Shown: positions 31,281 through 50,744 of the stretch, piece after piece
How the letters are laid out: the number at the start of each line of letters is the position of its first letter
Numbering within the stretch: position 1 is the stretch's first letter
From: Candidatus Latescibacterota bacterium
Lineage (GTDB): Bacteria; Latescibacterota; UBA2968; SICM01
DNA length: 64,000 nucleotides
Reading direction: 5' to 3'
NCBI GenBank assembly: GCA_965217865.1
Contig: CBDCJO010000002.1
Span: forward strand, 3,072,001 to 3,136,000
Notes under the pieces: model-generated
Seen by the model: only the letters and a program-made list of their open reading frames with translations
Database searches by the model: none
What the model was told of the DNA's origin: nothing
Made by a program: the position numbers and the translations under genes

Positions 31281-31384
31281 GTGTCGCGACGGAGTCGGAG
31301 TGGGGCGCAAAGGCGGTGTGGAAGTGTTGGAGTGGAGGGTTGCGCTTTGAACAGAGGATTTGAGGCTGGAATCCGAATTTATTG

Positions 31385-33769
31385 ATGGCCATATTCAACC
31401 GAGATAAGAGCGCCCGGTTCGAAGAGATCGAGGAGTACCGGGCCCTGCTGGAGCCTCCCGGGCACTACGAAGAGGCCTTCAACGTCAAAACGATCATCGG
31501 TGCGATCTTCGTTTCGATCGTTATGTTGCCGGGAAATATCTACCTGAACTTGATGATCGGAGGGGGGTTCGGAGCGGCTGCGGAATGGGTGACGATCATC
31601 CTGTTCATCGAGCTTTCCAAGCGATCCTTCACCACCCTGAAGAAACAGGAGATCTACCTCCTGTTCTATGTGACCACAGCCCTCATCGGGGCAGAGACGG
31701 GGGCGTTTGAAGGTCTTCTCTGGAACCAGTATTTCGTCCAGTCCCCTGCGGCCAAGCAGTTCGGGATATCCGGTCTCATCCCGGCGTGGGTCGCACCGCA
31801 GCCGGATTCGAACGCCCTCATCGACCGGACGTTCCTCCATTCGGATTGGATCGCCCCTATCGTCCTCCTGGTCATCGGTACGATCATGGGCAAAATCTCA
31901 TGGTTCACGGGGGGGTACATCCTGTTCCGGCTGACTTCGGACTACGAGCGGCTTCCCTTCCCGTTCGCACCGATCAATGCTCAGGGGGCGATGGCTCTGG
32001 CCGAGCAGAGCCAGGGGAATCAGGGATGGCGTTGGCGCATGTTCAGCGTGGGGGCGGTTATCGGGATCGTATGGGGTCTTTTTTATGTGGGGGTTCCGGC
32101 GATTACCGGGGTGTTCATGGAGGAACCCCTGCAAATCTTTCCGATCCCGTTCGTTGACTTTACGCCGTATACGGGATACTTCCTGCCTGCCACCCCGCTG
32201 GGCTTCACCTGCCACCTCGGTCCGATCTTTGTGGGTTTGCTCGCACCATTCTGGGGGATCGTGGGGACGTTTTTCGGGGTGATCGTCTACACCGTCGCGA
32301 ACCCGATCCTCCACAGCTACGGGATGCTCCCCCACTGGTTCGTCGGTATGGACACCATCCAGACCCAGTTTCTGGGTTATATCGATTTCTGGATGAGCTT
32401 CGGCCTTGGAACGACTCTTGGCATCGCGGCCATCGGGCTCTACCAGGTCTTCAAAGGCAGAAGCCCGCTCGGGGGGCGCGGGCTTACTCAAAGAACCTTC
32501 ACCCCTCCGCCCGGTCGCGGAGACTTCCGCATCGGAATCTGCATCATCCTTTTCGCCGCTTCCGGCCTCTACACGATCTTGTTGGCCAGGTATCTCTTTC
32601 CCAACCTGGTGACGAATACCCTGATCGTTTTTTTCTTTCTCTTCGCGTTCGTCTATACACCTCTTATCTCATTCGTGAACGCCAGGCTCATCGGCATGGT
32701 GGGTCAGACCGTGTCCATTCCCTATATCCGAGAGGCCACGATTTTCCTGAGCGGTTTCAGGGGGATGGAGATCTGGTTTGTTCCTTTCCCGCTCGCCACC
32801 CACGGGAGCCAGGCCCAGAAGTTCCGGGAGATCGAACTTACCGGGACCCGGTTCACGAGCATTTTGAAGGCCGAGGTGTTCATGGTTCCCCTGGTGCTTG
32901 CGGCGAGTTTTTTCTACTGGTCCTATATCTGGAGCCTTGCCCCCATTCCGTCCGAGACTTATCCATATGCACAGGTCTATTGGCCTCTCAGGGCTCTTCA
33001 GGACTGCGTCTGGTTTACGAGCACCCTCAAGGGGGAGATGCGGGTAAGCCATGACCGGGTGTCCTGGCGTCCGGCCAATCTGACGGACGGGAGCTGGTGG
33101 TACTGGCGGGTGAGGACGACAAGAGATGCGGAGGCTGAAGATATCAAGACGGGTGGGGATGGGCCTTGGTCCAGGGTGGGATTCTTTTATACCGACTATA
33201 TGAAGAAGGGTCCACCCCTGACTAAGCCGGCAAGGATCAAGCCGGAGGATCGGTGGGAGTCGACGGGGTCTCCGCAACTCCAGGGTATGGACGATGGGGT
33301 GGGGGCGTATACCCCAACCCCCCCCCTGCCCGTTTTCCCGATCCAGGGATCGAAAGGAGAACAGGTCCGCTACTATTTCGAGATCGATCAGACGCCGGAG
33401 TTCGACGGGCCGTTCCTGCAGACGTCGGAGGACATCCCGATTTTCTATGAAGCCGTCAAACCGGCGGTCATCGTGTCTGGTTTCGTCATCAGCCTGGTTC
33501 TCTTCGTGTTCATGTCTATTCTAGGATTGCCCATCTTGTTCGTGTTCGGGTTCGTGAGGAGCCTGGGGATTCTTCCACATCTGGTTGTCACGGAGATCAT
33601 AGGAGCCCTGCTTGCAAGGTATTACTTCTGGAATAAGTTCGGCCGGCAACAGTGGAGACTTCACGCCACGGTATTGGCCGTGGGTTTCAGTGCCGGGATG
33701 GCGCTGGTGGGAATGGCTTCGGTGTCTGTGGCGATGATTCAGAAGTCGGTGTCGGTGGTACAGTTCTAA
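31385..33769 (+). CDS. OPT-like peptide transporter with an inserted soluble beta-sandwich domain
   Basis: EWVTIILFIELSKRSF, SDYERLPFP, IWSLAPIPS...WP; hydrophilic insert at ~33030-33430. Confidence 0.8.
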   Translation: MAIFNRDKSARFEEIEEYRALLEPPGHYEEAFNVKTIIGAIFVSIVMLPGNIYLNLMIGGGFGAAAEWVTIILFIELSKRSFTTLKKQEIYLLFYVTTALIGAETGAFEGLLWNQYFVQSPAAKQFGISGLIPAWVAPQPDSNALIDRTFLHSDWIAPIVLLVIGTIMGKISWFTGGYILFRLTSDYERLPFPFAPINAQGAMALAEQSQGNQGWRWRMFSVGAVIGIVWGLFYVGVPAITGVFMEEPLQIFPIPFVDFTPYTGYFLPATPLGFTCHLGPIFVGLLAPFWGIVGTFFGVIVYTVANPILHSYGMLPHWFVGMDTIQTQFLGYIDFWMSFGLGTTLGIAAIGLYQVFKGRSPLGGRGLTQRTFTPPPGRGDFRIGICIILFAASGLYTILLARYLFPNLVTNTLIVFFFLFAFVYTPLISFVNARLIGMVGQTVSIPYIREATIFLSGFRGMEIWFVPFPLATHGSQAQKFREIELTGTRFTSILKAEVFMVPLVLAASFFYWSYIWSLAPIPSETYPYAQVYWPLRALQDCVWFTSTLKGEMRVSHDRVSWRPANLTDGSWWYWRVRTTRDAEAEDIKTGGDGPWSRVGFFYTDYMKKGPPLTKPARIKPEDRWESTGSPQLQGMDDGVGAYTPTPPLPVFPIQGSKGEQVRYYFEIDQTPEFDGPFLQTSEDIPIFYEAVKPAVIVSGFVISLVLFVFMSILGLPILFVFGFVRSLGILPHLVVTEIIGALLARYYFWNKFGRQQWRLHATVLAVGFSAGMALVGMASVSVAMIQKSVSVVQF

Positions 33770-33986
33770 GGAAATTGAAGATTGAAAAAAGGCATTGAAA
33801 ATTGGAGATTCAACTGAGCCAGTAGCAGTGGCAGGAAAGGCAAAGGCTAGGGGTCAGAGGTCGGGCAGTAGCAGGTGGCAGTAGCAGTGGCAGTGGCAGG
33901 AAAGGCAAAGGCTAGGGGTCAGAGGTCGGGCAGTAGCAGGTGGCAGTGGCAGGAAAAGCCAAGGTCGGAGGTCAGGGGTCGGGGGA
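33770..33986 (+). repeat. Modular short-tandem-repeat spacer 1
   Basis: TTGAAGA, GCAGTR, GGAAAGGCAAAGGC and AGAGGTC modules; internal ~65-bp tandem duplication. Confidence 0.85.
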
Positions 33987-34159
33987 TAATCAAATCGAGT
34001 GTCACAAACGAATTTTCCACTCGCGTGGAAAATTGAATGAAAACATTATTTATTTGATATATATGAGGTTAGTGAGAGTCGAAACCGGAAAAAAGATTCG
34101 GGAAGGAAGGAGTCGAGAGCCCAAAAGCAACCCACCCAAATAAAAACCGCAATAACCCA

Positions 34160-34483
34160 TTGTACCAGTTTAAAGACCTTAACGTGCTGGATGCTGGCAG
34201 GCTCTGGTATTCTGGTGCATACCTGTTGGAAACCATTCCCTCGGTAATCTACCTTCTGATGAAACACGGGGATGACTTCGAAGAGGCCGTAGTCCGTGCT
34301 GTCAACGATACGAAGGACAATGACACCGTAGCCGCTATTGTGGGAGCCGTTTTGGGGGGGTTATACGGAAGAACGGGAATTCCAGGGCGTTGGATAGACA
34401 ATTTGGTAGGACGGACTTCGTTTGAAGACGATGGACGAGTATTTGAATTAATCGAAGAGGCCAAGAAGACATTTTGGGGGTGA
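34160..34483 (+). pseudogene. ADP-ribosylglycohydrolase, C-terminal fragment
   Basis: AVNDTKDNDTVAAIVGAVLGGLYG...IPGRW; N-terminal two-thirds absent. Confidence 0.8.
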
Positions 34484-34518
34484 GAAAAAGAAGCATTATC
34501 AGGAGTAAATAAAACTGG

Positions 34519-34703
34519 CTTAGCGACATAATTAATTGCGCATACCCTTCCGCCCGGCCCCACCGGAATACAGAATACAGAAGAAGAATTAAAGGCAGTA
34601 GCAGTAGCAGGAAATGCTAATGCAGAGGGCAGGAAAAAGCAGTAGCAAGGAAAGGCAATGGCAGAAGTCGGAGGTTAGAGGCCAGTGGAAGCCAGGAGTC
34701 AAG
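34519..34703 (+). repeat. Modular short-tandem-repeat spacer 2
   Basis: MITE-end fragment, CCCTTCCGCCC..CCGGAATACAGAATACAGAA, GCAGTA, GGAAAGGCAA, AGAAGTC modules. Confidence 0.8.
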
Positions 34704-34722
34704 TTGCTACTTATACTTAGCT

Positions 34723-35547
34723 CTACCTGTAGCTCTGAATTGTCTCAGCCACCTCGTTCAGGTAATCATTTGTACTGAGACTGTGTGCTTTGGCAAAAAG
34801 ATTGAGTGTGGATACTCGAGGACGCGCGCCAGTCTCAACCCGGCGAACTTGCCTCTCTGAGAGACCTTTAATGTCGGATTGACGAAGACCGTGCTTTCTT
34901 CTCACATCAGCAACGGCCTGACCAAAGAGCTGGTCGGACTGTACTCGTTCCTGCTTGGCTTTCTCCGGGTAGTTTGGATCAGAGAGCCCGCGGATGGATT
35001 CCATATCCAGGTGGACGTCCAGGGATGGCCAGTAGACATAGCTGCCGTCTTTCTCCACCTGGAAACTCCTCACATCCCTGCCGGATTTCCTGGATAGAGC
35101 TGCGATTTTACTCAACTCGATCTCATATGTTTTGGTTGAGCAACTCATCACAACCAGGAAGTTCTCTACCAGGTGCGCGTCCGCAATCAGCTCATCAGCA
35201 GCGCCAATTGTCCTTGCGTGGAGGATTCTTGCAGGCACATCTGCCTGCTGATGCACGATTAGATTACTGAAAAGCCTGAGTCCGGCTTTTTGCAGGTATT
35301 GAGGCAGTAGATTCGAGGCATCGGGGTCGTGGATGAACAGGTTCTCCAGGTAGCGCTTGTTATTTGCCTCACGAACGAATGAAGAGACTTCAGGCAGATC
35401 ACGCAGCGAAACCGACAGGTAGAGGGCACTGAATTCGTCCAGGAGTGAATCCTGAAGCTTCCTGTACTTACGATACCATCGGGACTTCGGAATATGCCGG
35501 GAAACTTCCGGGTCGAGCGCAATCACGGCAAAGGCCGCTGTCGTCAT
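34723..35547 (-). CDS. DUF2442-like + XRE-HTH protein (putative antitoxin)
   Basis: DGSYVYWPSLDVHLD; C-terminal GLRQSDIKGLSERQVRRVETG; ATGA-coupled to the upstream gene. Confidence 0.75.
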   Translation of the reverse strand: MTTAAFAVIALDPEVSRHIPKSRWYRKYRKLQDSLLDEFSALYLSVSLRDLPEVSSFVREANNKRYLENLFIHDPDASNLLPQYLQKAGLRLFSNLIVHQQADVPARILHARTIGAADELIADAHLVENFLVVMSCSTKTYEIELSKIAALSRKSGRDVRSFQVEKDGSYVYWPSLDVHLDMESIRGLSDPNYPEKAKQERVQSDQLFGQAVADVRRKHGLRQSDIKGLSERQVRRVETGARPRVSTLNLFAKAHSLSTNDYLNEVAETIQSYR

Positions 35548-35762
35548 TGTCGGCATACTTTCTCCTCCCACTCCTGAAGGAGTTGCAGGCGGTATTTTAC
35601 GATGAGTTTGCAAAGCTTTTTTTGCAACGGGCCAGGCGGCCTCTTAAAGTTCTTTGGCCATTTTGCGGTCCAATCCAGTAGATTGACGTGAGGTGGCCGG
35701 TGATCGTGTGACGGGAACACCAATTCGTACCCGGGTAAGGTGCAGCATGTGACTTTTCCCAA
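35544..35762 (-). CDS. DUF4160-like small protein (putative toxin)
   Basis: FPSHDHRPPHV...LLQEWEEKV; promoter TTGACA-17-TATCTT at 35814-35786. Confidence 0.65.
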   Translation of the reverse strand: MGKVTCCTLPGYELVFPSHDHRPPHVNLLDWTAKWPKNFKRPPGPLQKKLCKLIVKYRLQLLQEWEEKVCRQ

Positions 35763-35859
35763 GATTCAGATCCTTTCCAACAAACAAGATAGGCGATACC
35801 GGACGTTTTGTCAAGTAATATATTAATCTAAACGTCCGGTTGGGTCGGGGTCAGGGGAA

Positions 35860-36008
35860 AAACGAGATGTGAGACGAAGACCCTTCCGCCCATCCTCACC
35901 GGAATACAAAAAACCCGTGAAACGTGAGACGTGAAACGTGAAACGTGAAAAGCAGTAGCAGGAAAGGCAAGGGCAGGAAAAGGCAAAAGCAGAGGCCAGA
36001 GGCCGGAG
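35860..36008 (+). repeat. Modular short-tandem-repeat spacer 3
   Basis: ACGTGA(A/G) x4-5, GCAGTA, GGAAAGGCAA, AGAGGCC. Confidence 0.85.
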
Positions 36009-36410
36009 GACTTCCGTAATTGGAGAGTCATTTTGTTTGCTTCCAACCCCTCCCCCAGGTCGTCCTTTTTCTTGCTACCACCCCTCCGTTACTCGCTTGC
36101 TCGCAACCCACATCCCTAAGTAAAAGGACTACAAAAAGAAGGATCCTTCGACTACGCTCAGGACAGGTTCTGCTCAAACGCCGCGGAGGCTGGGCGCGCC
36201 TAAGCCGAAATGTAGATGGCAATCAGAATTTTGTGTGGTTCCGAGAGGGCTCGTGGCATTACCGGGTCCCCGTGGAACGTTAAAAAGGAGGGACAGAGTC
36301 GCGCCAAAAACCGATATTATGATTCAGGTATTGAGAGTACAGGTAGACTTCCGTAATTGGAGAGTCATTTTGTTAGGGTTCCGAACCCCTCGTCCAAGGT
36401 TGCCCTTTAT
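36009..36410. repeat. ~340-bp direct-repeat-bounded element, copy B
   Basis: Homologous to 11284-11669; GACTTCCGTAATTGGAGAGTCATTTTGTT at both ends. Confidence 0.85.
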
Positions 36411-36469
36411 TGGGGGATTGAAGATCAATTAAAGATGTTGAAGATTGAAGGTTGATCCCTATAGGAAGG

Positions 36470-37636
36470 ATGTTTTTCGTGATCGACACGGAGTTGTTTC
36501 AGAGTACGCCATTCCGGGAGGCCAAAGGACTCGTCCTGGAGGAGAAATGGGGCCTTTTCGTTCACGTGGCAACGATCGCCCGGAGTCCTTCGGGGACGCT
36601 CGTCGTCGCGTGTATCGGTGGACCGAGGGCGGAGCCCGAGCCGGACAACGTGATCGCCATGGCAAGGTCTTTTGATAACGGTGAAACCTGGACTCCCCTA
36701 AAAGGGATGATCGACCCCGACGATGGGTGGCGGGCCTTTGATCCTGTGCTCTGGACCCGACCGGACGGGAAGATCTGGATACAGTGGGCGGAAGGGGATT
36801 GCCCCGGATTTCGGAAGAGGGACCGCGAAAGACGCGCTTTTTCCGGGTTCCTTACCGTTGACGGTGAAGAGATCGGGTTCAGCGATGTTCAACCCTGGAT
36901 CGGTCACGAGACGGGCAACTGGGCGGTCAATCCCCCGATCGTCCTGAGCAGCGGACGGTGGGTCGTTCCGATGCAGAACGGACCTTTTCAATATGTCCGC
37001 TCGTCGGACGACCAGGGCAGGACCTGGGTCAACCGGGAACAGGCGACGACAGAACAGGTCCCGGGGGGGATAGATGAGGCCACCTTCATTCAGCGGGAGG
37101 ACGGAAGGCTCTGGGCGCTGTATCGGACGACCGGTGGGAGGTTGTTCGAGGGTTTTTCGGACGACGAAGGGGATTCGTGGATCGATATTCGCGAAACGGG
37201 GATCCCCAACCCGGGAACCAAACCCTTCCTTTTGAAACTCGCCTCCGGACGGGTCCTTCTGCTCAACAACGCCACGTTTGCATCGCGGGTGGGGTACAAA
37301 GACCGTCCTCCTCCGGCGGACAAGTACTCCGGGAGGAGCTTCCTCACGGCCGCCCTGTCGGAGGACGACGGACGGACATTCTGCGCCGAGCTGGTGCTGG
37401 ACCGGGATCGCTTCGTCTGTTACCCCTCTGCGATTCAGGACCCCGAGGGGGTCATACATATCGTCTACAGGATGAAGACCGAACTGGCGTATAGCTGGGT
37501 GGGAGGCCCGATTGAGGACACAAGCACGGGTCTCGAAGCGGGGACGGCGGTCGCAAGGGTGGGCTACGGGCAGCTTACGGAGGAGATGATTCTCGCGTGT
37601 GAGGCTCCGGAGTGGGGAGGGGGGGAAGGAAAATGA
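36470..37636 (+). CDS. Sialidase-like BNR/Asp-box beta-propeller protein
   Basis: Asp boxes SFDNGETW, SDDQGRTW, SDDEGDSW, SEDDGRTF; YPSAIQ. Confidence 0.88.
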   Translation: MFFVIDTELFQSTPFREAKGLVLEEKWGLFVHVATIARSPSGTLVVACIGGPRAEPEPDNVIAMARSFDNGETWTPLKGMIDPDDGWRAFDPVLWTRPDGKIWIQWAEGDCPGFRKRDRERRAFSGFLTVDGEEIGFSDVQPWIGHETGNWAVNPPIVLSSGRWVVPMQNGPFQYVRSSDDQGRTWVNREQATTEQVPGGIDEATFIQREDGRLWALYRTTGGRLFEGFSDDEGDSWIDIRETGIPNPGTKPFLLKLASGRVLLLNNATFASRVGYKDRPPPADKYSGRSFLTAALSEDDGRTFCAELVLDRDRFVCYPSAIQDPEGVIHIVYRMKTELAYSWVGGPIEDTSTGLEAGTAVARVGYGQLTEEMILACEAPEWGGGEGK

Positions 37637-37790
37637 AGATTGAAGATTGGGGAACCAAGGGCATTGAATATCGAAGATTGAAAGTCCGTCAAACGTCAAA
37701 CGTGAAACGGGAAAAGCAAGTGGCAGGAAAGGCAAAGGCAGGGGCAGGAAAAGCCAGGGTCAGAGGTATGGAAAAGCAGGGGGTCAGCGA
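37631..37790 (+). repeat. Modular short-tandem-repeat spacer 4
   Basis: TGAAGAT, ACGTCAA/ACGTGAA, GGCAGGAAAGGCAAAGGC, GGTCAGAGG. Confidence 0.85.
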
Positions 37791-37929
37791 GAGTCACAAG
37801 TACGAACCTTGTCTAAAATCAACGGTCCTTCGGTCCAGGGAATATGGTTTCCATTAAGCCAAACGATCTCAGCCAGATTCTAATAGCGTAGACAGAATCG
37901 GGCCGAGTAGACTAAAGATTGGGGTTCTT

Positions 37930-39156
37930 ATGCCGGATCCATCAAAGCCGTGGAAAATAGATGTGGACATCCTGCGCAGCTCGCAGTACGAGAACGTGAG
38001 CGTGGGGTTGCCCTACCTCGATGAGCAGGACAGGCTATGGCTGCCTGTGAACATCAGTTTCGATGCCAGTCAGACCACTGACGCCGGGTGGTTGGTGGCC
38101 AGCAGCGTCCTGCTCGTCTCGGAGGACAAAGGGCTGACCTGGGAGATCACCGACCGGCCGTGGCCCGGGCCAAGCCACAACCGCGTCACCATGCCCGACG
38201 GTACGATCGTGGAGGTGAGCGCCAGCGGCTACTCCCGGTATCCGCGAACGGAGGTGAAGCGGCTGGAGAAAGAGGGGTATCATGCGTGGGACCTGGGACC
38301 GAAAGATGATTACTGCGCCATCATCTATGATTTGTGGCAGAAGCGATCAACGGACAACGGCAAGACCTGGGAGAAGCGGGACATTCACACGCAGCTCCCT
38401 TTCTTCGCGCACTTCGTGGCCCGCGGCCCCCTGCGACTGCTCGATGACGGCTCGCTCATATTCCTCGCCTATGGCTGTACCCCGGAGGAACGGATCACCG
38501 CCAATGAGGATCATACCGCAACCGTGAAGGGCCGATTCCACAGTTACGGCCACGGGCGCTGGAGCGTCTACTGCGTACGATCCGACGACGACGGCGAGAC
38601 GTGGGAAGCGGTCCGTGCGGCCGATGGGCGCCTGTCGCCCTCGGTGCACGGCTTCAACGAGACGTTTCCGATCGTCACCGGCGATGGAAACATATTCGTC
38701 ATCCTGCGTACACAGCTGGGAGAGTTTGCCTACTCCGTAAAGTCTTCGGACGGTGGCAGGACCTGGTCTGAGCCGGTTCAGACCCCGATTCGCGCCAAGC
38801 ATCCTTGGCCGACGGCATTGGCCGATGGAACAATGGTGTGCACCTACCAGAGGCGGTTTGCGGTGCCCTACGGCGTGCGCGCTCGTTTCGCCTCCGACAA
38901 CGGCAAGGTCTGGAGCGAGGAGGTGGTGCTCCGCGACGATATTCCCCTCTCCGACGGCGTCTGTACGGTGAACACGGTGGAGTTCCGGGATGGTACGCTG
39001 TTCAGCGTGTTTCAGGCCAGGAAGTACGATGACAAAGGTCGGGGGTGGCCGTTTGTCGGCGGCTGCCGATGGACGAAGAGCTACCGGAGGCCTTACGGAC
39101 CGAAGCTGGAAGTTCCGGCTGCCGGGGAGAAGTACAATTATCCGAAGGGAGATTGA
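37930..39156 (+). CDS. Sialidase-like BNR/Asp-box protein
   Basis: SEDKGLTW, STDNGKTW, SDDDGETW, SSDGGRTW, SDNGKVW. Confidence 0.88.
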   Translation: MPDPSKPWKIDVDILRSSQYENVSVGLPYLDEQDRLWLPVNISFDASQTTDAGWLVASSVLLVSEDKGLTWEITDRPWPGPSHNRVTMPDGTIVEVSASGYSRYPRTEVKRLEKEGYHAWDLGPKDDYCAIIYDLWQKRSTDNGKTWEKRDIHTQLPFFAHFVARGPLRLLDDGSLIFLAYGCTPEERITANEDHTATVKGRFHSYGHGRWSVYCVRSDDDGETWEAVRAADGRLSPSVHGFNETFPIVTGDGNIFVILRTQLGEFAYSVKSSDGGRTWSEPVQTPIRAKHPWPTALADGTMVCTYQRRFAVPYGVRARFASDNGKVWSEEVVLRDDIPLSDGVCTVNTVEFRDGTLFSVFQARKYDDKGRGWPFVGGCRWTKSYRRPYGPKLEVPAAGEKYNYPKGD

Positions 39157-39570
39157 GGAACGGGAAAAGGCAATTGAAAATTGAAGATTGAATATTGAAA
39201 GGCCGTCAAACGTGAGACGGGAAACGGGAAAGGCAGAAGCAGTAGCAGTGGCAGTGGCAGGAAAGGCCGTGAGACGTCAAACGTGAGACGTGAAAAGTGA
39301 AACGGAAAAACCGCAGCGTGTTTTTATTCTTAGCGACATAATTGATTGGCCAGCGTGAAGAGCCGATCAATATGCGCAATTAATTATGTCGTTAAGAAAG
39401 GCCGTCAAACGGCAAACGTGAAACGGGAATGCCCCTTTCGCCCATCCCTCCGGAATACAGAAGACAGAATACAGGAGACAGAAGAAGATCTAAATTCAAC
39501 TCAGTCGTCAGACGTGAGAGACGGGAAAAGGCAGAGGTCAGAGGTCGGGAAAAGCAAAAGCAGTGGCCGT
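39157..39570 (+). repeat. Modular short-tandem-repeat spacer 5, including a 68-bp mini-MITE
   Basis: All module types present; TIR element CTTAGCGACATAATT...AATTATGTCGTTAAG at 39329-39396. Confidence 0.85.
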
Positions 39571-39644
39571 GGAATGAGGTCCGGGAGTGCGACAATCGCA
39601 ATATTCTCTTTCTATGATCGATTATAATCTTCCGACGGCTATTC

Positions 39645-40037
39645 TCAGTTCTTCACCTCAATGATGTGGGCGTTGACCCATTCTACCAGCTGTTCACGTG
39701 AAATATTACCAGATGCAACTCCAAGAATGAGGCTCTCCTGTTCCTCAACGGATGCCTGAATCTCGAAACTGTTGAGCAGAAGAAATACGGCCATTGCTCC
39801 ATGACCAACACGTTTATTCCCATCTATGAACGGGTGATTCAAAATCAGAGAAAAGCAAAGCGCGCCTGCCTTCTCTGAAAAGGTTGAATAAAGATCTTCT
39901 CCCTCAAACGTCATACGAGGCTGAGCAACGGCAGATTCAAGTCCGCCTAGATCACGCAGCCCCGATGACCCTCCAGTTTGTTCAATTATTCGTCGGTGAA
40001 GTTCCAGCACTTCACCCAAAGTGAGATACCTCATCAA
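39645..40037 (-). CDS. doc: Doc/Fic family toxin
   Basis: GLRDLGGLESAVAQP, HPFIDGNKRVG. Confidence 0.93.
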   Translation of the reverse strand: MMRYLTLGEVLELHRRIIEQTGGSSGLRDLGGLESAVAQPRMTFEGEDLYSTFSEKAGALCFSLILNHPFIDGNKRVGHGAMAVFLLLNSFEIQASVEEQESLILGVASGNISREQLVEWVNAHIIEVKN

Positions 40038-40228
40038 CTCAGCCTTCGGTAGAGTTCCTTATTCTTCTCCAAAATCTGTTCAGCTACCTTCTGGAAATCT
40101 TCCTGAGGATGTCCCAGAACATCTGCCACCGCAGCTCTGGCGAGATCTTCTGGAGGAACACCAAGACGCTTGGCCGTCTTTTCTAAATGTTCAACCTCGT
40201 TTTTGGATAGATCCACAGATATCTTCAC
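40034..40228 (-). CDS. RHH-like antitoxin
   Basis: 64 aa ending ILEKNKELYRRLS; overlaps the doc start. Confidence 0.85.
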   Translation of the reverse strand: MKISVDLSKNEVEHLEKTAKRLGVPPEDLARAAVADVLGHPQEDFQKVAEQILEKNKELYRRLS

Positions 40229-40519
40229 AATCCACCTCCTTTAATTGCTTCATTTCTTACAAATTGGAATAACGTGTGCAGATAGCGGTCCGCCGGTATT
40301 CCGGGGCTCTTATGCTCCCAGCAATTCTTGAATATAAAGCAAATCCGTTCTGCGTTCAAGCGAATGAGTAGCCAGGGGACAGGAGGAAAAAACAGTAGCA
40401 GTGGCAGTGGCAGGAAATGCAAAGGCTCAGATATTCAATGAGGCCTGGGTTCTAATAAGGGATCCAGGTTCTTTTATCACCAAAGCCGGGTTCGGATTCT
40501 AATTCAGAAGCGACCACAG

Positions 40520-40870
40520 TCATGCTGTTCGCTTCATGCGTTTCTTATGTGTGGAGAGTTTCACTTCGATATCGAAATCAAGTTTATTTTGGAGAACGGA
40601 AAAAATGCTCGTAAGGTTGTCCATTGTAGGATTTCCCTTTGAGGATAACATGCGGTGGATGCTTTTGCTCGGCTTGTCCAATTCCTCTCCAAGCCGCTCA
40701 AAACCAATTGTTGAATTTACCAATTCTCTGAGAATCAGACGGGCCGTTTCAGACTCGCCATCTAAGAAAGTCGAAACTGCTTCATTCATCAGAGATGCAG
40801 CAAAATTGGGATCTCTTTCAGCTCTCTCCCGAATTGTTTGTTTATAGTCGCGTGTCAGTGCTATTGACAT
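40520..40870 (-). CDS. HigA-like/addiction-module antidote HTH protein (no toxin partner)
   Basis: LTRDYKQTIRERAERDP...KSIHRMLSSKGNPTMDNL. Confidence 0.8.
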   Translation of the reverse strand: MSIALTRDYKQTIRERAERDPNFAASLMNEAVSTFLDGESETARLILRELVNSTIGFERLGEELDKPSKSIHRMLSSKGNPTMDNLTSIFSVLQNKLDFDIEVKLSTHKKRMKRTA

Positions 40871-40924
40871 AAGGTAACTGATATGTTACTATTCATTGTG
40901 GGAATCCAAGAGAAAAAAAAGAAG

Positions 40925-41220
40925 AGCAGGGGTTTTGGGGGTCAGGGGCCAGAGGAAATTGAAGATTGAAAATTGAAGAATGAATATTGAAGACTGTTGA
41001 AGCGAGATCAATAAGACGAAAAGAAAGTCCTTGGTTGTTCCAATATTCAATTTCTCGATATTCAATATTCAATGAGTAGTGGCAGTAGCAGGAAAACCGT
41101 GAAACGTCAGACGTGAGACGGGAAAAGCAAGTGGCAGTAGCAGGGGGCAAGAAAGTCAAAGGCAGGGGTCGGGAAGAGCCAGGGTCGGAGGTCAGGAACA
41201 ATTGAAGATAGACAATTGGG
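40925..41220 (+). repeat. Modular short-tandem-repeat spacer with an inverted TTGAA/TTCAA array
   Basis: (ATTGAA[GA])n followed by (TATTCAA)n, then GCAGTR, ACGTGAG and AGGGTC modules. Confidence 0.85.
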
Positions 41221-41252
41221 TGGGGAGTCCGCCTGCGGCGGACTTTGTATAC

Positions 41253-41277: not shown

Positions 41278-41520
41278 GGATAGTGCATATAACTCTCGCT
41301 AGCAGGAGAAGGGGACGATGACATTCATTTTCTGTATATTAAGAATCTCACTTTCCCCTTCATTAACCTATTAGATCATTTCGAAATTCCCCTGGAGGAA
41401 TTTTCAAAGTGAAAATGCAAAATGGAATATGCAAATTTTGCGATGCGAAGCCCGCGATAGGGTTGGGGGATGGAAGCCGAGGGGAAAAATAATAAAGGAG
41501 AAGGACGAAAGGAGGGGCCC

Positions 41521-41901
41521 GTGTTTATCACGCTATTAGGGGTGACGTTCCTGATCGCATTCGTCGTTTCTTATATCCTGGTCAGGATTTTCGCCGTGCC
41601 GTTAGATGCCATCCTGACCCGGATCATTTCGGACGAGATCAGCTCGGCCTGGTTACGGTATCTTAAGTTCGCGATGTATGTCGTCGGCATCTCCAAAGGG
41701 GTAAGGGTACACGAATTAGAGCGGTATATCACCCCGACGGCAAGGCGATTCGAGCAGACCGGGATTATCGAGTTGACCCGTGACCGCTGGATCCTTGAGG
41801 TCTACCGAACCGTCATCGAAACGCTTCAAGGTATCGCCTGGTTGCTGCGTACCCATGCTGCTCATAGAATCGATACGTACGCCGCCAGTCCACGTTATTA
41901 G
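41521..41901 (+). CDS. Hypothetical membrane protein, possibly 3'-truncated
   Basis: GGAGG RBS before GTG; TM segments; sequence character changes after LQGIAWLL at the junction to low-GC DNA. Confidence 0.6.
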   Translation: MFITLLGVTFLIAFVVSYILVRIFAVPLDAILTRIISDEISSAWLRYLKFAMYVVGISKGVRVHELERYITPTARRFEQTGIIELTRDRWILEVYRTVIETLQGIAWLLRTHAAHRIDTYAASPRY

Positions 41902-42828: not shown

Positions 42829-43393
42829 TCTCAAACCTTTCAACAAAAAAGTGTATCCTTTTACCTTGATGATTGTGTTGAGAGAATAAAGAAGATAATA
42901 ATGGGTTTTCGTGCGCCTGTAGCAGAAGCGCTGGTTGTGGGATTCTAATGCTGCCCCAAACCTACAAAGCAGGTTTGGGGTGGTCCGAATGGCAAGAGCC
43001 TGTATCCTTGTGTTGCGGAGCTAACTTTTCGGCAGTATATGATTAGATTTTGGGGAGGCTAGTTTTGTGCGCTCGGCTTTTGGCACTTCCAAGTTACTAT
43101 ACCCCACATCTATTTTAGATTTAAAACCCGGTCCCACTTAGGCTTTGGAATAGTTGTATGTACTTTTGTGTTATTAATTCAGTCGAATATGATAGCATCC
43201 CCCGCTTTGCATTAATGGAACAATCCTTCCAGCGGGAGAGGGAGGGTTGCTTGATGAAATCATCGGTGGCGGCGCGGGGTTGTGAACGCGCAGCAGTTCA
43301 AGATATGCGCCTGGGCATGGAACCCCGAACTCCAGTGGGGGCTCGGCTGTCGCCCCCAATTTGCCGTCTGTCCGTGTGGGACTATGGCGTGAG

Positions 43394-43543
43394 ACAGTGG
43401 CGACCGCCTCCGACCTTTCAAGTCCTTCTCCGGGAAACAGATCGCCAGGTTTTGAGGGCGCAGGGTGGCTCATGGCGATTGAGGGATGACAACTTGTGGA
43501 ATTTGATTCCGTTGGGAGATTTCTGGCGTGGGTCAGTGGCGAG
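43394..43543. repeat. 150-bp direct repeat, copy 1
   Basis: One visible mismatch to 45504-45653; CAGTGGCGA at both ends. Confidence 0.9.
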
Positions 43544-44127
43544 CTCGAGACAGCGTTGAGGGCACAGATCCGGCCCGTGTGCGACTTTCTTTCTGAATCC
43601 GGGAAAAAGGGGGACGCGACCTCCACAAAACGGGCGGCACGGCACAGACGGCACGTGGGCGAAGTGAGAAGGTCCCGGTCCCGTGGATTTGCGGCCCGGG
43701 ACCTCACTCGTGATCGGGGTCGAGCATCTCGAGAGCCCGAGCTTCGGCTTCCTCGCGAGTCATTCCACCCTCATGCTCCATGATCCCCGCGCGTTCATCG
43801 AACGCCTTGATGTCATCCTCCGTAGATGTCGCCGCAGTGTTGGGGGGATCAAAGCGTGACATCGTACCATCCATGTCACGCTTTGAAGGGAGAGATATGT
43901 GCGCGTTCGGCTTGGAAACATCGTCCGAGTCGTCCTCCAGGTAGCTATCCCATGCAGAGAAGAACGCTTCCCACAGGTAGCCCTTTCCCCTTGCCGGCCC
44001 ATCCAGACCACGCAGATATTGATATGACCCAGGGAGTCCGAGAGCAATCCGCCGATGGCGGTTCGGTCTAGGCGCGTTCGTGGCGCCTAGCCGATCCTGG
44101 CGGCGAATTTCGGAAAGCCAGGGAAGC

Positions 44128-44583
44128 TCATCCGCCTTCGAGCTTGTCGCTCTGTTCCCTCAGTGAGTCGAGCGCTTTCAAGTCACACATAGACGCAACC
44201 CGCACTGGTATGCCGAGAACAAACCCTTTTCTTGAGCGGGAGAAGGCTTTGCGGAAATTAAAGCGTTTAGCAGATGGAGCAAGGATCTCCGCGTTCCCCT
44301 CGTGGAATAAACGCATATACTTGCCCCCCTCAACCAGTTCGCGCTCTTTCTCGTCGGTCAGCTTTGCCAGATCGGCAGCATTCTCCACAGCCCGCAGAGC
44401 AGACAGCACTTTTCCTGCGTTCTCTGGCGTGGGATTAATCATCAGGTCTATATCGTTCACACGCGGCTGACGACAATAATGCGACTTGGCCATGCTTCCG
44501 ATGAGCAAGTACTGCACGCCTTGGTTGTTAAAGGCTCTCAGCAGGTCGGCACAGTTGTCGGTCCAAAGCTCCGGAAACTGCAC
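44128..44583 (-). CDS. Minimal nucleotidyltransferase-like protein
   Basis: VQYLLIGSMA...PRVNDIDLMI (hG[GS]...DhD), IPVRVAS..DLKAL. Confidence 0.75.
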   Translation of the reverse strand: MQFPELWTDNCADLLRAFNNQGVQYLLIGSMAKSHYCRQPRVNDIDLMINPTPENAGKVLSALRAVENAADLAKLTDEKERELVEGGKYMRLFHEGNAEILAPSAKRFNFRKAFSRSRKGFVLGIPVRVASMCDLKALDSLREQSDKLEGG

Positions 44584-45503
44584 AGAAGGCCTATTCGACC
44601 AGCCGCAGCGGCGGGACTTGCGGCTTTGATATGCCCCGGGGAAAGTGGACAGTGGTTTAAGCCGCTTTCTGCAGCGATAGCCGTTACGGAGACTTTAAGG
44701 GATGGACCGGCAAGGGGAAAGGGCTACCGGTGGAAGGGGTTCTTCTCTGCATGGGAAAGCTACCTGGAGGGCGGCCCGGGCGATGTTCCCAGGCCGAACG
44801 CGCGCATGTCCCCCCCTTCAAGCCGTGAGACCGTGACATATGTTGAAAAACAAGGAGTTGTGCGGCGTTCCAACCCGTGACATGGATGGTACGGTGTCAC
44901 GGGTTGAAACACCCCCCAAGAGCGACTCCTGCGTAAAGAACACTTGTGACGAAGACCAAGAGGCGTTCGAGGAACACGCGGCGATCATGCAATATGATGG
45001 CGGAATGACTCGTGAGGAAGCCGAAGCTTGGGCATGCGAGGATGTTCGACCACGACCTAAAGGAGATCGAAAATGAGGCGTTCGAAGGAAGCCGAAACTC
45101 AAGCTCGTGAGGCGAAGATGCTTGATGATCTCCTGAAGGACCTCCTCATCCTGCCGGAACTCCCTGAACTCCCCCCATTCGTGTGACTGTCGCACTCCAC
45201 TGTTGCAACTCCACTGTCCCGCTCCACTATCCCATATACCCCCCCACGGTCGCTTTTCTGAAGGTTCCGCACATTTGCCCGGATTCCTGAATAAAGTCGC
45301 ACACGGGGAGAATCCGATGCCCTGTGGGCGATTCCGGGGCAAGAGGGCCATCTCGTTTAAGGATCCCAGCCCATGAGGGGTCGCGGCTCCGCCGGCGGAA
45401 ACCACATGGGGCCTCCTTCCAAGAAAAAGTGGAGGCAAAAACGTTGCGCGGGGCTATCCGGTCGGCGGATTCGGAAACTCCGGCCCTGGACGAGGGGTCG
45501 ATT

Positions 45504-45653
45504 ACAGTGGCGACCGCCTCCGACCTTTCAAGTCCTTCTCCGGGAAACAGATCGCCAGGTTTTGAGGGCGCAAGGTGGCTCATGGCGATTGAGGGATGAC
45601 AACTTGTGGAATTTGATTCCGTTGGGAGATTTCTGGCGTGGGTCAGTGGCGAG
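45504..45653. repeat. 150-bp direct repeat, copy 2
   Basis: Matches 43394-43543; abuts a truncated GATase gene. Confidence 0.9.
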
Positions 45654-46201
45654 ACATCAACGAGAACAACCACCCGATCCGGGCAGGCGACATCCTCGGC
45701 GCCCACAACGGCACGATCTACAACGCCAACACCCTGTTCCGGCGGTTCAAGCTTCACCGCTTCGCCGAGGTGGACAGCGAGCTGCTCTTCCGGCTTGCCG
45801 CCCGGGCCGGGCGAAACGGCCGGATCGACGTGGAGCGCTTCAAGGGCCGCCTCAAGCTCTGCTGCGGGCAGATGGCGGCGGTGATGGCATCCCGGCTCGA
45901 TCCGGAGACCATCCTCGTGCTCAAGGGGAACAAGCCGCACGAGCTTCCGCATCCACCGTCGGCACCGGGCTGTCCTCTATGCCTCCGATCCGGCGTATCT
46001 GGACGCGGTCCTGGACGAAGAACGGGGCTGGCGCGAGCTGCCCGTCCCCGCCATGAGCCTGTATGGTGTTCCGGCACCGGGATCTGATGAGATTGCTCGA
46101 TGGAGCCGTTCGAGTTCGTCGCGCAGGCGAGGCGACGGAAGAAGCCTGCCTCGGTGGAGGTAATCGATGACTGGGAGAGCACGGTCCACACGACCGAGTG
46201 A
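45654..46201 (+). pseudogene. Class II glutamine amidotransferase-like fragment, frameshifted
   Basis: NNHPIRAG...HNGTIYN...EVDSELLFRL, KGNKP; 5' end missing. Confidence 0.75.
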
Positions 46202-46220
46202 ACCCCCGAAGGAGAACACA

Positions 46221-46685
46221 TTGGAGCTGCTGACTCTCTTCGTCTACGGCACGCTCAAGAGCGGATACTGGAACCACGACCCCTTCTGCGAGGGCGCGCT
46301 GGAGATCCGGGAGGCGCGGATCCGCGGCCGGCTCTACGAGGGGCCCGGCTTCCCGGTCCTCGAAGGTCCCGGACGAGGATGTCCTCGCCCAAGGGACCGT
46401 CGACCCGTTGGCCGACATCGCTGCACAGGCGCGCCTTTCCGGTCGGGTGGAACAACCCCCCTCCCGACCAGTCCCCGAAAGCGCCACAGCGGGCGCCTGG
46501 GGCACCGTGTACGGGAAGCTGCCCACCTTCGACGACCCTGATACCCGCATTGCCCGCCATCGACCGCCCTTCCGCCCGGGCGGTTCCAGCCTCTACCCGG
46601 CGCCTGCGAGCTCGTCTAGGTCTATACGGCCGAGGCGACCGGCATCAAGCGACACCGGATCGTGTCCGGCTGCTGGCCAGAGTAG
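46221..46685 (+). pseudogene. Gamma-glutamylcyclotransferase family, frameshifted
   Basis: LFVYGTLKSG...NH...GRLY..PGFP. Confidence 0.75.
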
Positions 46686-46899
46686 CGATGCGCCCAAGTG
46701 CAGTTTGCTGCCACCTCGCAGCACCAGTAATAGACTGGCTCTCCAGGTTTCACCTGAACGACCGCCTATAAGCTCGCAAACGTTGAGAATTGCAACTCTC
46801 CGTCGGCACTTCGAGCTTCCCCTCCACGTCCAGAACCCGAAAACACATTGACGAGGGACATCAAGTTTCTTAGGTTTCTTGACGCAGGATCGGTCGAAG

Positions 46900-47115
46900 A
46901 TGGAAACTGAGGAGGGCTGGGTCGGAATCGCCGAGGTCACCGCGCATCTACAGGTGACCAAGGAATCCATCTACCGTTGGGTCGACGCGAAGGAATCTCC
47001 AACTCGCCGGGTGGGACGCTTGCTGCGATTCAGGCTCTCGGAAGTGGACGAGTGGGTGAAGGCCGGAGGAAGTGATCCCGAAGGTAGCCCATCGAGCAAT
47101 TCGGCGGAGAGCTAG
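46900..47115 (+). CDS. Excisionase-like HTH DNA-binding protein
   Basis: WVGIAEVTAHLQVTKESIYRW...VGRLLRFRLSEVDEWV. Confidence 0.85.
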   Translation: METEEGWVGIAEVTAHLQVTKESIYRWVDAKESPTRRVGRLLRFRLSEVDEWVKAGGSDPEGSPSSNSAES

Positions 47116-47173
47116 ACCAATTAAGAACGCATGAGAACAGGAAATGTCTGATGAGTGCTGAAACTGAGCGCGC

Positions 47174-47482
47174 TTGCAAACGTTACTCGCGAAATGGGAA
47201 CCGAAGATCGGCGTCGGTGTGCCCGAGGTTCGTATCAGAAAGATGAAAACCCGTTGGGGGACGTGCAACAGTGACGCCGGAAGAATCTGGTTGAATCTTG
47301 AACTGGTGAAGAAGCAGGCATCCTGCATTGAGTACATCGTAGTGCACGAGATGTTTCACTTGATTGAACGCCATCACAATGAGCGGTTTTGGGATCTGAT
47401 GGACCGGCACATGCCGCGGTGGCGCTTGCATAGGGACGAACTCAACCGTGCACCGCTCGCACACGAAGGCTGGAAATACTGA
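47174..47482 (+). pseudogene. YgjP/DUF45 (M48-like) metallohydrolase, C-terminal fragment
   Basis: MKTRWGTCN, IEYIVVHEMFHLIERHHN. Confidence 0.82.
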
Positions 47483-48619
47483 ATGCAATCGTCCACTACC
47501 AGTTGGGACCGCGAGCTAACTAACAGCGACTTCCCGGTCCCTACACAAGATTATAATACTGGGTTCACCATATCTGCAAACGGCAATAAGAGGCAATGGT
47601 GGTCTGGTAACATGCCGCCGCCAAACAGTCCCCGCCAAAACTCGATCAGATGGACCCGTTCAGTTGCCGAACAGGCGTTTGACTGTAAACGTCAGTCCAG
47701 TAACGACGAGCCGGTGAACGTACACGCCTGAACAGACCGGGTTTATATTTAGGCAAAACATACCTGAATGTCAATTGGATACTACGGTGCCGCCTGAATA
47801 CGACCGGATCGAAGACCTCCAGATCTCGGTTCTCTGAGAGCGGTCAGCCGCTGCTGCTCCCGGGGTGCGAATCTGCTCCTGCAGGTATCCGCTAGCTGAT
47901 CGGTTGCAGCCTATTCATGCGCAACCTTCTGCAGCCTGGATTGAAGGTGCTTGAGCGCTGCCCCGGACGCAACCGGGCTGTTAAACAAGGCCGACGGGAA
48001 AAACAGAGAATCAGAGAGGAGTATGGAATTGCGACCTCTGAAGAGGTGGATGTGAAGACGTTGCCGGAGCGGCTTCGGAAAGAAGTCGTTGCGGCGAAAT
48101 CTCCGATTTTATTGCCGATGAATGTAACCGCCTGGACACGGCTGACGATGGACAGCGCATGACCTATGACACGGGATGTTCCATGACGCCGACTGCTTCC
48201 GGATTCTCGGACGCATGAGGCCAGGTTTCTCCAGTTTGTTTCCATTTCCGAATCTCGAAGTATTTACAGTCAAAAGTGTCAGCATCGTATGGGAGCATGG
48301 ATGCGTTAGGGAAGCGCTCACTACCCATTTTCAAACCATGGGGGAGGCCCGGATGATCAACGAGTCATAAAGCTGTGTGCTACGCAATAAAGTCGCCGTA
48401 CAAGGCGTCTCAACGGATGGAGGCCGCCGAACGTAGGCGTCACAATGGGATTGGAAAGTCTCAACTCTCCTTGTTCCCCTGACCTTCCGGTTATCCTTCC
48501 GTATAGTGGATTTGACCTGGTTTGGTGGATACCTTATCTTTGCAGAAAGGAGGCTTCATGGGTTGCAGCGACGGGCAGGGCCTCGAATGGATTGACAGAA
48601 GACGCATGATGGGAGAATA

Positions 48620-49075: not shown

Positions 49076-49417
49076 GCCGCCTTGCAGGTCAACGACACCT
49101 TCAGCGCGCCATCCTCGCGCGACTCGGCAGGAAGAAATAGCTAACGGTTTTGGTAAACGTCACACTTTCGAGTTCAAGCCTGCCGGAAGGCGGTAGGCCT
49201 GCCGCCGGGTAAGGCCGGTACCCTTCTTGGCGAGCGAGAAAGCCGGCGGCGCGGAGATCGCAGACAATCTCGCCCTTCTGGAACAACGGACCGCCCGAGG
49301 CGCCCTCGGCCTGAGCGCGTATGGACGGTTGTTTCCATAATGTGGTCGGACTTCCGGTGGAAAGGTTGTGTGCGATGCTCAAACAGATGGATTGCAACAT
49401 ATGGGAGATGAGGAGAG

Positions 49418-50725: not shown

Positions 50726-50744
50726 GCGCCTCGACTTGGCGTCG

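Follow-up and report, generated by a model that had tools for sequence, protein, structure and literature searches.

What are the repeat-built spacers that separate a series of unrelated small genes at 31-41 kb of this DNA, and do they belong to a dedicated device for collecting such genes? For the window, that is, the whole stretch of 64,000 nt that was analysed, a preliminary description made from the letters alone had reported seven intergenic tracts of tandem modules and proposed an integron-independent gene-capture or shuffling hotspot. The seven tracts exist, at positions exact or within about 30 bp of those first given, and their vocabulary is as first noted, namely A (TTGAAGA), B (ACGTGAG, ACGTGAA or ACGTCAA), C (GCAGTA or GCAGTG, plus a tail), D (AGAGGTC) and E (..CCGG(AATACAG)); an eighth, a short A tract, had been missed. 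The region is composed as follows.

31382..33769, +, conserved 795-aa membrane protein without Pfam or NCBIfam match; its stop codon anchors tract 1
33768..33985, +, tract 1: A, C and D modules; begins at the stop codon; internal direct duplication of about 65 bp
34160..34483, +, ADP-ribosylglycohydrolase, C-terminal fragment only (PF03747 profile 222-286 of 287, E 5e-18)
34519..34688, +, tract 2: half "R" motif (34519-34545), then E, C, D; unstructured, z 0.17
34723-35547, -, DUF2442-HTH ORF (Pfam E 0.0014, Atlas 0.96); antiparallel to the tracts
35544-35762, -, DhiT/DUF4160-like ORF (weak, E 0.0087); antiparallel to the tracts
35841..36009, +, tract 3: D, B, E, B, C, D
36009..36408, strand not assigned, REP/MITE-like repeat with about 19 copies, outside the tract vocabulary; depth peak in public contigs
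36417..36450, +, short A tract, a truncated A-hairpin, upstream of sialidase-like gene 1
36470..37636, +, sialidase-like gene 1 (BNR_2 profile match)
37632..37787, +, tract 4: A, B, C, D; its first A unit contains the stop codon of the upstream gene
37930..39156, +, sialidase-like gene 2 (BNR_2 profile match)
39159..39567, +, tract 5: A, B, C, B, R inverted repeat (39329-39396), B, E, B, D, C
39645-40037, -, Doc/Fic toxin (profile match)
40034-40228, -, RHH-like antitoxin of the Doc/Fic unit
40267..40375, -, relic of a tyrosine-integrase 3' end (40307-40375) and TAAC boundary (40270-40273); ends abruptly at tract 6
40383..40426, +, tract 6: C module
40520..40870, -, orphan HTH antitoxin-like gene; a toxin would not fit before tract 7
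40937..41209, +, tract 7: D, A-hairpin mini-element (40957-41075), C, B, C, D, A
41225..41246, +, GC hairpin (z -1.96); the leader of the four-helix-bundle gene L001 has one of this kind

The labels first given to the ADP-ribosylglycohydrolase fragment, the two sialidase-like genes and Fic/Doc were upheld. In the supposed DUF4160/DUF2442 pair the DUF2442-HTH member is supported and the DUF4160/DhiT member is weak; the orphan antitoxin is an HTH protein whose antitoxin label is weak, an HI1420-like cluster appearing only at rank 28 of 30. The region was said to hold no integrase, a statement to be qualified by the integrase relic that it carries.

The modules of the window are polarised to the + strand, as described: all 18 matches to GCAGTRGCAG are on +, 17 of them within tracts (0.11 expected from shuffles), as are all 11 matches to ACGTSARACG (0.51 expected). 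Tandem units of 6-7 nt far exceed chance in this genome: a tract detector trained on it and applied to 3 Mb called 143 tracts, whereas the same 3 Mb, reversed or locally shuffled, yielded 0. The idea that the spacers might be assembly joins is contradicted by public contigs that span tract regions, one covering 34559-36042 and another 39251-40026, both without difference (X2, possibly the source sample), and by a contig of a diverged strain that crosses tract 6. The folding z values of three tracts (0.17, -0.70 and -1.04) are no better than those of shuffles, and in these three no palindromic core unit of the REP/BIME or NIME type was present; stable folds occur at the R inverted repeat of tract 5 (z -6.6) and in tract 7, where a reverse A arm (41040-41075) forms a hairpin (z -2.9). 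Nor do the tracts have the form of CRISPR arrays, with lengths of 39-162 nt (10th-90th percentile) and variable module order, and the window contains no CRISPR-type Rfam match.

The tracts are not a local feature of an array. The whole genome holds 292 of them, joining into 262 composites, and the window is their densest cluster. Most adjoin ordinary genes, housekeeping genes included, and some lie within core operons; among the hosts are genes which, from their N-termini, we take to be groEL-, argD- and nuoH/J-like. Intervals between tracts with less than 50% GC are as frequent (10/87) as in the background (11%). The view of the tracts as dedicated delimiters of an accessory array is not supported, most of them following single-copy genes of normal GC across the genome.

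Their orientation follows a simple rule. The purine-rich strand (the sense strand is 72% purine) runs away from the host gene, most often from its stop codon, while some tracts set out from a gene on the opposite strand, at its start or its -35 box; tract 3 sits about 30 bp past TGTCAA, a -35-like box of the minus-strand DhiT/DUF2442 unit. A same-strand stop codon marks the start of 148 of the 262 composites and an opposite-strand start that of 24, while 3' ends are seldom anchored (12 and 11); right after stops, 143 of the 292 tracts are on the coding strand and 7 antisense. The fixed local polarity first noticed is real (170 of 185 neighbouring pairs less than 10 kb apart share a strand), and it is set by the adjacent gene boundary, without any array leader. 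D is the commonest first module (128/292). The modules have conserved non-repeat tails and the E unit is about 60 nt long. Stretches common to different tracts do not exceed the length expected under a 7th-order Markov model of this vocabulary, so that recent copying from tract to tract is demonstrated by a few cases only.

The origin of the modules is suggested by the four PF05635 four-helix-bundle genes of this genome (L001, L002, L003 and L004), each of which lies between inverted arms built from units also seen in tracts: B around L001, C at L003, and two additional sets of words, GACCAT/GACGAT at L002 and AAAATG at L004. Near tracts the latter two sets occur in tract orientation in 18/18 and 23/23 cases. 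In other genomes, D arms flank the four-helix-bundle genes L030, L086 and L101, A-like arms are found at L098 and L099 and B-like arms at L045 and L046; E has only loose relatives there. The link of heptamer tracts with four-helix-bundle genes, which the preliminary description had mentioned, holds in this genome, and the window, as it also stated, has no PF05635/TIGR02436 ORF between arms. In an intact cassette the left arm sits at the stop codon of the host gene and the right arm at an opposite-strand start or -35 box. At least two of the four loci are damaged, by a frameshift in L003 and an IS inside L001.

A probable gene-less derivative of such cassettes is the A-hairpin, present in about 50 copies with a conserved loop; inverted arms occur in 40 of 101 A cases. 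With terminal inverted repeats, many copies and no gene, it resembles a MITE, but it shows no target-site duplication beyond chance (1 of the 16 A-hairpins examined out of about 50, compared with 4% in shuffles). In the 13 loops of equal length the consensus reads I-H-K-x-T-R-K-S-stop (TGA in 9/13), resembling the S-I-I-K-[TS]-[TS] ends of the A-armed genes L098-L100; on these nine codons, from 13 of about 50 copies, the loop may be the remnant of a four-helix-bundle gene end.

The association with particular cargo, in part as claimed, is a secondary enrichment on top of tracts that mostly flank ordinary genes. Toxin-antitoxin loci are flanked by tracts on both sides within 1 kb in 3/15 cases, against 0.97% of genes (p 4e-4), or 2/14 when this window is excluded (p 0.008); the remaining 12 of 15 are far from any tract, which speaks against the link. 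Lone paralogs are so flanked in 10/253 cases versus 18/3385 single-copy genes, small counts in which the 10 genes represent about 7 families and are hence non-independent. Copies or fragments of DUF1016N-SNase lie within 1 kb of a tract in 7/10 cases. Sialidase-like gene 1, present in 3 copies in this genome and without homologs at E<=1e-40 in 130 class genomes, has a paralog of 91.7% nt identity at C2:1151285-1150109 with homology limited to the ORF and different tract mixes on both sides; paralogs of gene 2 (66-81% nt) lie in a tract-separated cluster at C2:2.33-2.36 Mb. An empty and a filled site can be compared at C2:2645149 and C2:2436488, which share the end of the upstream gene and a tract half of 67 identical nt; in the latter an ABC-F gene with its promoter lies between these two parts. 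Many pieces of cargo are broken within a gene: a stub of about 23 codons, called a HepT-like start from its position behind an MNT gene, is joined to a tract; a 61-bp piece (93%) of the DUF2442 gene of this region is fused to an R motif and tract at C2:2031836; and integrase 3' ends are truncated at the identical codon at 40375 and C2:4999306, both abutting tracts. IS3-like elements lie inside B tracts at two sites and an IS200 inside one.

Among relatives, the 795-aa membrane protein is found in 31/31 genomes, and in 7/7 loci the gene is followed by other genes and no tract; the tract patterns were found in 0/30 and 0/167 relatives. At strain level, an X10 contig (a diverged strain from another study) runs across tract 6 (39534-40567); at tract 1 its match ends after 33834, with 69 letters unmatched, and X8 and X10 contigs both lose the match at 40861, within the orphan HTH gene. 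A one-unit length variant occurs at 39405 in public contigs; no case was seen of genes gained or lost between strains with a contig bridging the junction, which counts against the reading given next.

Taken together, we consider it probable, at roughly 60%, that the tracts are stacked relics of cassette arms, similar to NIMEs and BIMEs, which likely act passively as sites where small mobile genes land and recombine. Cassettes with arms of several families, together with derivatives that lack the gene, like the A-hairpin, would have been copied repeatedly to gene boundaries, the gene and the far arm usually being lost. As neighbouring tracts are direct repeats that are identical in part and lie between genes, where they do no harm, slippage and homology- or microhomology-driven recombination would then reshuffle modules, move single genes and fix the ends of inserted or eroded cargo, such as TA units, IS, integrase scraps and nuclease genes. 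The window would be an extreme pile-up of this process and not a separate machine. Counting against this reading, the reverse arm is retained in only 1/103 B, 3/156 C, 2/152 D and 1/45 E cases, the genome yielded neither an intact cassette with A or E arms nor a mobilising enzyme, and the hairpins lack target-site duplications. The proposed hotspot is supported in its polarity, four-helix-bundle link and cargo link, and not in its array delimiters.

An enzyme-driven platform, in which a recombinase such as a SAM_4 tyrosine integrase acting on the R motif inserts cassettes at tracts with fixed polarity in the manner of an integron, is unlikely. The integrase relic of the window (40307-40375) is 88% identical in nt to C2:1657254-1657318 (tblastn E 0.002), within a SAM_4 tyrosine integrase (C2:1657172-1658351) that is the best TIGR02249 match of the genome and has, at a distance of 166 bp, an R motif and a tract with inverted R motifs on either side; 7 of 12 R-motif matches are located at tracts, which the integrase 3' relics also abut, and the TA units of the window lie antisense to the tracts with their own promoters, as is usual in integron cassette arrays. 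This integrase, however, matches in two pieces (118 and 105 bits, the IntI cut-off being 265) with positions 181-234 unmatched, is frameshifted as assembled, and most of its about 12 downstream repeats are far from tracts. No IntI exceeds the family cut-off in the genome, and the attC core pair (RYYYAAC...GTTRRRY) is absent from 262/262 composites and from 33.7-41.3 kb, in a search that degenerate sites would escape; severed cargo and tracts behind ordinary genes also disagree with such a platform. The label integron-independent holds only in part, as the Doc unit carries a relic of a second, integron-like tyrosine-integrase repeat. Templated addition, in which a reverse transcriptase (RT) and a four-helix-bundle protein, presumably related to Avd, extend free 3' ends at gene boundaries on the arms of cassette RNA, aborted or switched copies yielding one-sided head-to-tail mosaics, seems very unlikely. 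It would suit the one-sided modules, the anchoring of 5' but not 3' ends and the tracts joined to broken gene ends; yet the PF00078 matches of the genome are two almost identical copies of a DRT4-like RT and one UG21-like RT, all of them away from the four-helix-bundle genes, with no group II intron or DGR RT in that search and no DGR-type RT adjoining an Avd gene, and the promoters included in the cargo point to DNA-level events.

A role at the RNA level, limiting premature termination or binding the four-helix-bundle pentamer, with cargo clustering incidental, appears quite doubtful. It agrees with purine-rich, unstructured tracts placed after stops in core operons, and a regulatory role has been proposed for oriented heptamers (MacGregor, 2015, PMC4679880, in the part on which we draw), but relatives lack both a tract after the same gene and the patterns, paralogs carry different module mixes and half or more of the four-helix-bundle loci are damaged. 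Neutral microsatellites made by slippage and oriented by selection, with A and B units carrying stop codons in all sense frames (the stop-codon argument is raised in part of MacGregor, 2015), would account for the duplication in tract 1 and the variant at 39405; the conserved tails, the long E unit, the loop kept in about 50 hairpins, and D, which has no stop codon, make this highly improbable; as a full account it is largely refuted by the conserved parts outside the repeats, with slippage left as a modifier.

A bolder version of the preferred relic reading, which we regard as rather improbable, would see transposase-free mobile DNA in which an active process writes Avd/S23p-like cassettes and their mini-derivatives onto gene boundaries, arm upon arm, and the polar mosaics so built then capture and shuffle single genes. 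If true, it would explain bacterial heptamer repeats and the function of S23p, and offer a gene-shuffling route parallel to integrons. The papers cited below leave open where the repeats come from and what the S23p/four-helix-bundle family does, two questions that are joined here in a test case: a single lineage has six or more arm families, cassettes both intact and damaged, a derivative without gene in 50 copies, about 260 stacked tracts that are likely relics, and a clear anchoring rule.

In chromosomal integrons, as at this locus, spacers of one orientation separate single genes and TA units that run antisense; here there is neither IntI over the cut-off nor an attC core, spacers also occur in core operons and cargo is often truncated. 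Oriented heptamers after stop codons are already published: as far as the sections cited go, GGGAATC in Xanthomonas and GGGGA(C/T)T in Nostoc (Rehm et al., 2015, PMC4692102) and TAACTGA in Beggiatoaceae (MacGregor, 2015, PMC4679880) are intergenic tandem units, of 7 nt there and 6-7 nt here, lying within 0-50 bp downstream of a stop codon (coding strand) or upstream of a start codon (non-coding strand; PMC4692102), with no pattern in neighbouring gene function noted (PMC4679880). Those sections describe one motif per genome, whereas here at least five unit families with conserved tails can be chained in one tract; PMC4679880 uses neither the term "helix bundle" nor "four-helix". The 23S rRNA IVS of Coxiella burnetii (S23p/PF05635/TIGR02436) is described, in the part of PMC4990558 used here, as a four-helix-bundle ORF in terminal inverted repeats with tandem heptamers upstream of its start codon; the likeness lies in the four genes with inverted 6-7-nt arms, but here the cassettes stand between protein genes and not in rRNA, and the window has arms and the gene-less hairpin only. 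Comparable structures are the Neisserial NIMEs (dRS3/RS arrays; Bentley et al., 2007, PMC1797815) and the BIMEs of E. coli (review PMC3184786), which, in the portions cited, are likewise lineage-specific intergenic mosaics that combine several families of small repeats, draw in IS and other repeats and are proposed to raise recombination of adjacent genes. These consist of palindromic units, while the present ones are mostly one-sided, unstructured, purine-rich tandem units of fixed polarity; the mosaic structure is present, and a link to adjacent gene variation is seen only within one genome. If the tracts promote single-gene duplication or capture, they would represent a NIME-like engine of genome variation outside Neisseria, assembled from different parts.

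The seven tracts of short repeat modules (A to E) are present in the sequence as first described, and they are not joins made in assembly, because tracts 3 and 6, as well as the R repeat, an inverted repeat, of tract 5, are spanned by public contigs, one of which belongs to a diverged strain and to another study. The + strand polarity reported for the modules was confirmed with two module patterns, of which 18/18 and 11/11 matches in the window lie on + (0.11 and 0.51 expected), and the labels given to the cargo are borne out with a strength that varies from label to label. Some features of the window had been overlooked in the preliminary description:

36417, a short eighth A tract
within tract 7, a reverse A arm
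40307-40375, a tyrosine-integrase relic
36009-36408, a separate repeat containing REP-like hairpins and a direct repeat, present in about 19 copies

A further copy of this last repeat lies at 11299-11670 of the window, close to a tRNA and an integrase. Tracts are absent from the integrase-led island beside a tRNA at 12167-19927 and from the further island debris and IS remnants at 43000-55500.

The genome has 6.43 Mb in two contigs, and the window is C2:3072001-3136000 (C2 being its contig). A Markov detector that had been trained on the genome's own strict motif clusters found 292 tracts, merged into 262 composites; as a control, it was run on a 3-Mb stretch, where it called 143 tracts, and on this stretch after reversal or local shuffling, where it called 0. 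Purines make up 72% of the tracts, which are clustered (per 50 kb, variance 8.1, mean 2.0), and this window, with 7 in 7.5 kb, is the densest site of the genome.

Tracts are anchored at gene boundaries. In fact, 143 of the 292 start between -60 and +30 nt from a stop codon on the same strand, and 7 follow a stop in antisense. Among the 262 composites, the 5' end lies at a sense stop in 148 cases and where a gene of the other strand starts in 24; the corresponding counts for the 3' end are only 12 and 11. Furthermore, GTCAAG or TTCAAG, which may be the -35 box of the antisense neighbour gene, occurs in the 80 nt before the tract in 15/62 cases with an antisense upstream neighbour vs 6/166 after sense stops. 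Therefore, the purine-rich strand points away from the neighbouring gene unit. This also explains why all tracts of the window read +, since tracts 1, 2, 4 and 5 lie downstream of + stops and tracts 3, 6 and 7 beyond the promoter ends of - units. A polarity set by the replichore was discarded, as there is no clean GC-skew switch and the adjacent gene boundary predicts the tract strand. Xanthomonas and Nostoc are reported to carry single heptamers at the same two placements (PMC4692102).

Several of the modules are shared with the arms of cassettes in which a four-helix-bundle gene (PF05635/TIGR02436) stands between inverted repeats. The genome has four such loci, each between inverted 6-7-nt arrays:

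L001, B arms, with an IS between the gene and the right arm
L002, arms of GACCAT/GACGAT words
L003, C arms, the gene frameshifted
L004, arms of AAAATG words

The GACCAT/GACGAT and AAAATG words are found at tracts too, in the tract orientation every time. Inverted arms were common, by eye and with no formal count, among 28 further loci of the phylum and 30 of another class: D arms surround the genes L030, L086 and L101, A-like arms L098 and L099, and B-like arms L045 and L046. A is the sole module whose reverse arm has often survived (40/101, vs 1/103 for B, 3/156 for C, 2/152 for D and 1/45 for E), and about 50 gene-less A-hairpins have one common loop. Of 16 loops caught by a strict pattern, the 13 of equal length can be read as I-H-K-x-T-R-K-S, with TGA next in 9, and this reading resembles the ends of the A-armed genes L098-L100; these nine codons are suggestive only, and would fit a cassette that underwent an internal deletion and then spread as one unit. 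The 16 A-hairpins checked for target-site duplications showed none beyond the level of shuffles. No GxxExxY genes (PF13366) were found in the genome.

Among the genomes searched, the expansion of the tracts is lineage-specific. The C pattern is absent from all 30 relatives and the A-hairpin pattern from all 167 other genomes of the phylum, and at 7/7 relative loci the membrane gene that precedes tract 1 (31382..33769, +) is followed by other genes and no tract. A metagenome scan with this gene gave 4 loci at 50-66% and no close strain; viral contigs contained neither the hairpin pattern nor a four-helix-bundle relative. The reverse A arm was found in a scan of the genome collection at a single locus (L058:1180-1640), a similar gene-less heptamer hairpin that lies past a stop codon, with a core-looking gene on either side, in an unrelated deltaproteobacterial genome with no TIGR02436 match.

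The proposal that tracts are dedicated cassette delimiters is disfavoured by their neighbours, mostly ordinary genes, normal in GC and codon score; inter-tract intervals include what we take, from N-termini, to be groES-groEL-, argD- and nuoH/J-like genes. An AT-rich cargo signature is not present (10/87 intervals below 50% GC vs 11% of random stretches), a negative weakened by gene calls from our own script, which recover too few short AT-rich genes.

Within this one genome, the tracts do have a secondary link to mobile cargo. Five Pfam families gave 15 toxin-antitoxin (TA) loci, of which 3 have tracts on both sides within 1 kb, vs 0.97% of 5042 genes (2/14 excluding this window, p 0.008); the remaining 12 are at least 2 kb from any tract. 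Tracts lie on both sides of 10/253 lone paralogs (about 7 families), 18/3385 single-copy genes, 0/258 IS-like genes and 0/97 segmental duplicates. A 91.7% copy of sialidase-like gene 1 lies 2 Mb distant; the homology does not extend beyond the ORF, and the module mixes on either side differ between the copies. At C2:2333619-2357135 at least six sialidase-like paralogs form a cluster, most with different tracts between them. The DUF1016_N-SNase fusion, a solitary, mobile-looking gene and putative nuclease, is patchy in the phylum (17/168 genomes), and here 7/10 copies or fragments have a tract within 1 kb (multiple copies at C2:1659687, 3834066, 4996417, 1496931, 4574034 and 1796113; L108-L111, L114-L128). 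It was rejected as the arm-making enzyme and classed as cargo because 14/14 homolog loci in relatives are without tract-like arrays.

Gene stubs join tracts directly. At C2:2436488, an ABC-F gene and its promoter stand between a gene-end copy (91.7%) and a right tract half that is that of C2:2645149 (full identity over 67 nt, and 96-98% over the next 400 nt or so); two events are likely, since the identities of the two sides differ. In public contigs, the match of the diverged strain (sample X10) ends inside tract 1, and those of X10 and a second sample, X8, both end at 40861, just within the start of the orphan antitoxin, which hints that these junctions vary. The zero X10 depth over 34702-35802, a hole without a joining contig, was discounted, and the tract-to-tract joints listed from public contigs were taken as repeat noise. 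In the gene at 41470-41901 both matches end at 41846, so in the strain of the window its 3' end may be replaced by the AT-rich glycosyltransferase region.

We consider it reasonably probable (about 0.6 for the explanation as a whole) that tracts are stacked relics of cassettes, further shaped by recombination. Cassettes and their derivatives would be repeatedly copied onto gene boundaries and would then lose the gene and the far arm; slippage and recombination among direct tracts would reshuffle the modules, move single genes and fix the cargo ends. Stretches common to different tracts are no longer than under a 7th-order Markov model, so recent wholesale copying between tracts is disfavoured. 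Slippage as the only process is one we would hardly expect. An RNA-level function of the tracts is improbable.

Site-specific capture of genes is unlikely, if the least so of these alternatives. No IntI over the cut-off was found in the genome, and no attC core pairs in the 262 composites or at 33.7-41.3 kb of the window. The R motif (12 matches genome-wide) is possibly a recombinase site:

34519-34545 of the window, half site in tract 2
39329-39396 of the window, strong hairpin in tract 5

Half sites lie immediately before tracts and near a frameshifted SAM_4 tyrosine integrase (C2:1657172-1658351, L129), which is separated by 166 bp from an R motif and a tract. About 12 copies of the integrase 3' end and of the repeat downstream of it, sharply bounded at TAAC, lie mostly distant from tracts and beside unrelated genes (e.g., C2:4999306, 4235050, 2034713, 1990091 and 4294686-4296282), and make up an integron-like system that lacks the IntI insertion. 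This second system is the likely source of the Doc unit in the window, because that unit carries a relic of such a 3' end and repeat. Templated addition of modules by a reverse transcriptase is highly improbable; the reverse transcriptases of the genome are DRT4- and UG21-like. Two near-identical DRT4-like enzymes and a split UG21-like one beside a SoFic gene lie at C2:451002, 814301 and 487150 (L069, L070). Y1/IS200-type transposases gave 19 matches, mostly of a single IS200 family, and the only copy placed relative to tracts lies inside one. No arm-copying enzyme emerged among the integrases, reverse transcriptases, transposases and DUF1016N-SNase genes examined.

By the tests run, the tracts are neither an integron, a DGR nor a CRISPR array. 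Their closest parallel in way of working are the NIME/BIME mosaics (PMC1797815; PMC3184786); unlike these, the tracts would consist of arms of IVS-type cassettes, in which tandem heptamers are reported to precede the S23p start (PMC4990558). In open main texts we found no published description of four-helix-bundle genes that lie outside rRNA between heptamer arms, nor of multi-family mosaic tracts of this type. This case adds a stacking of arms from many families, a rule for their anchoring, a hairpin derivative, and counts of the cargo near tracts.
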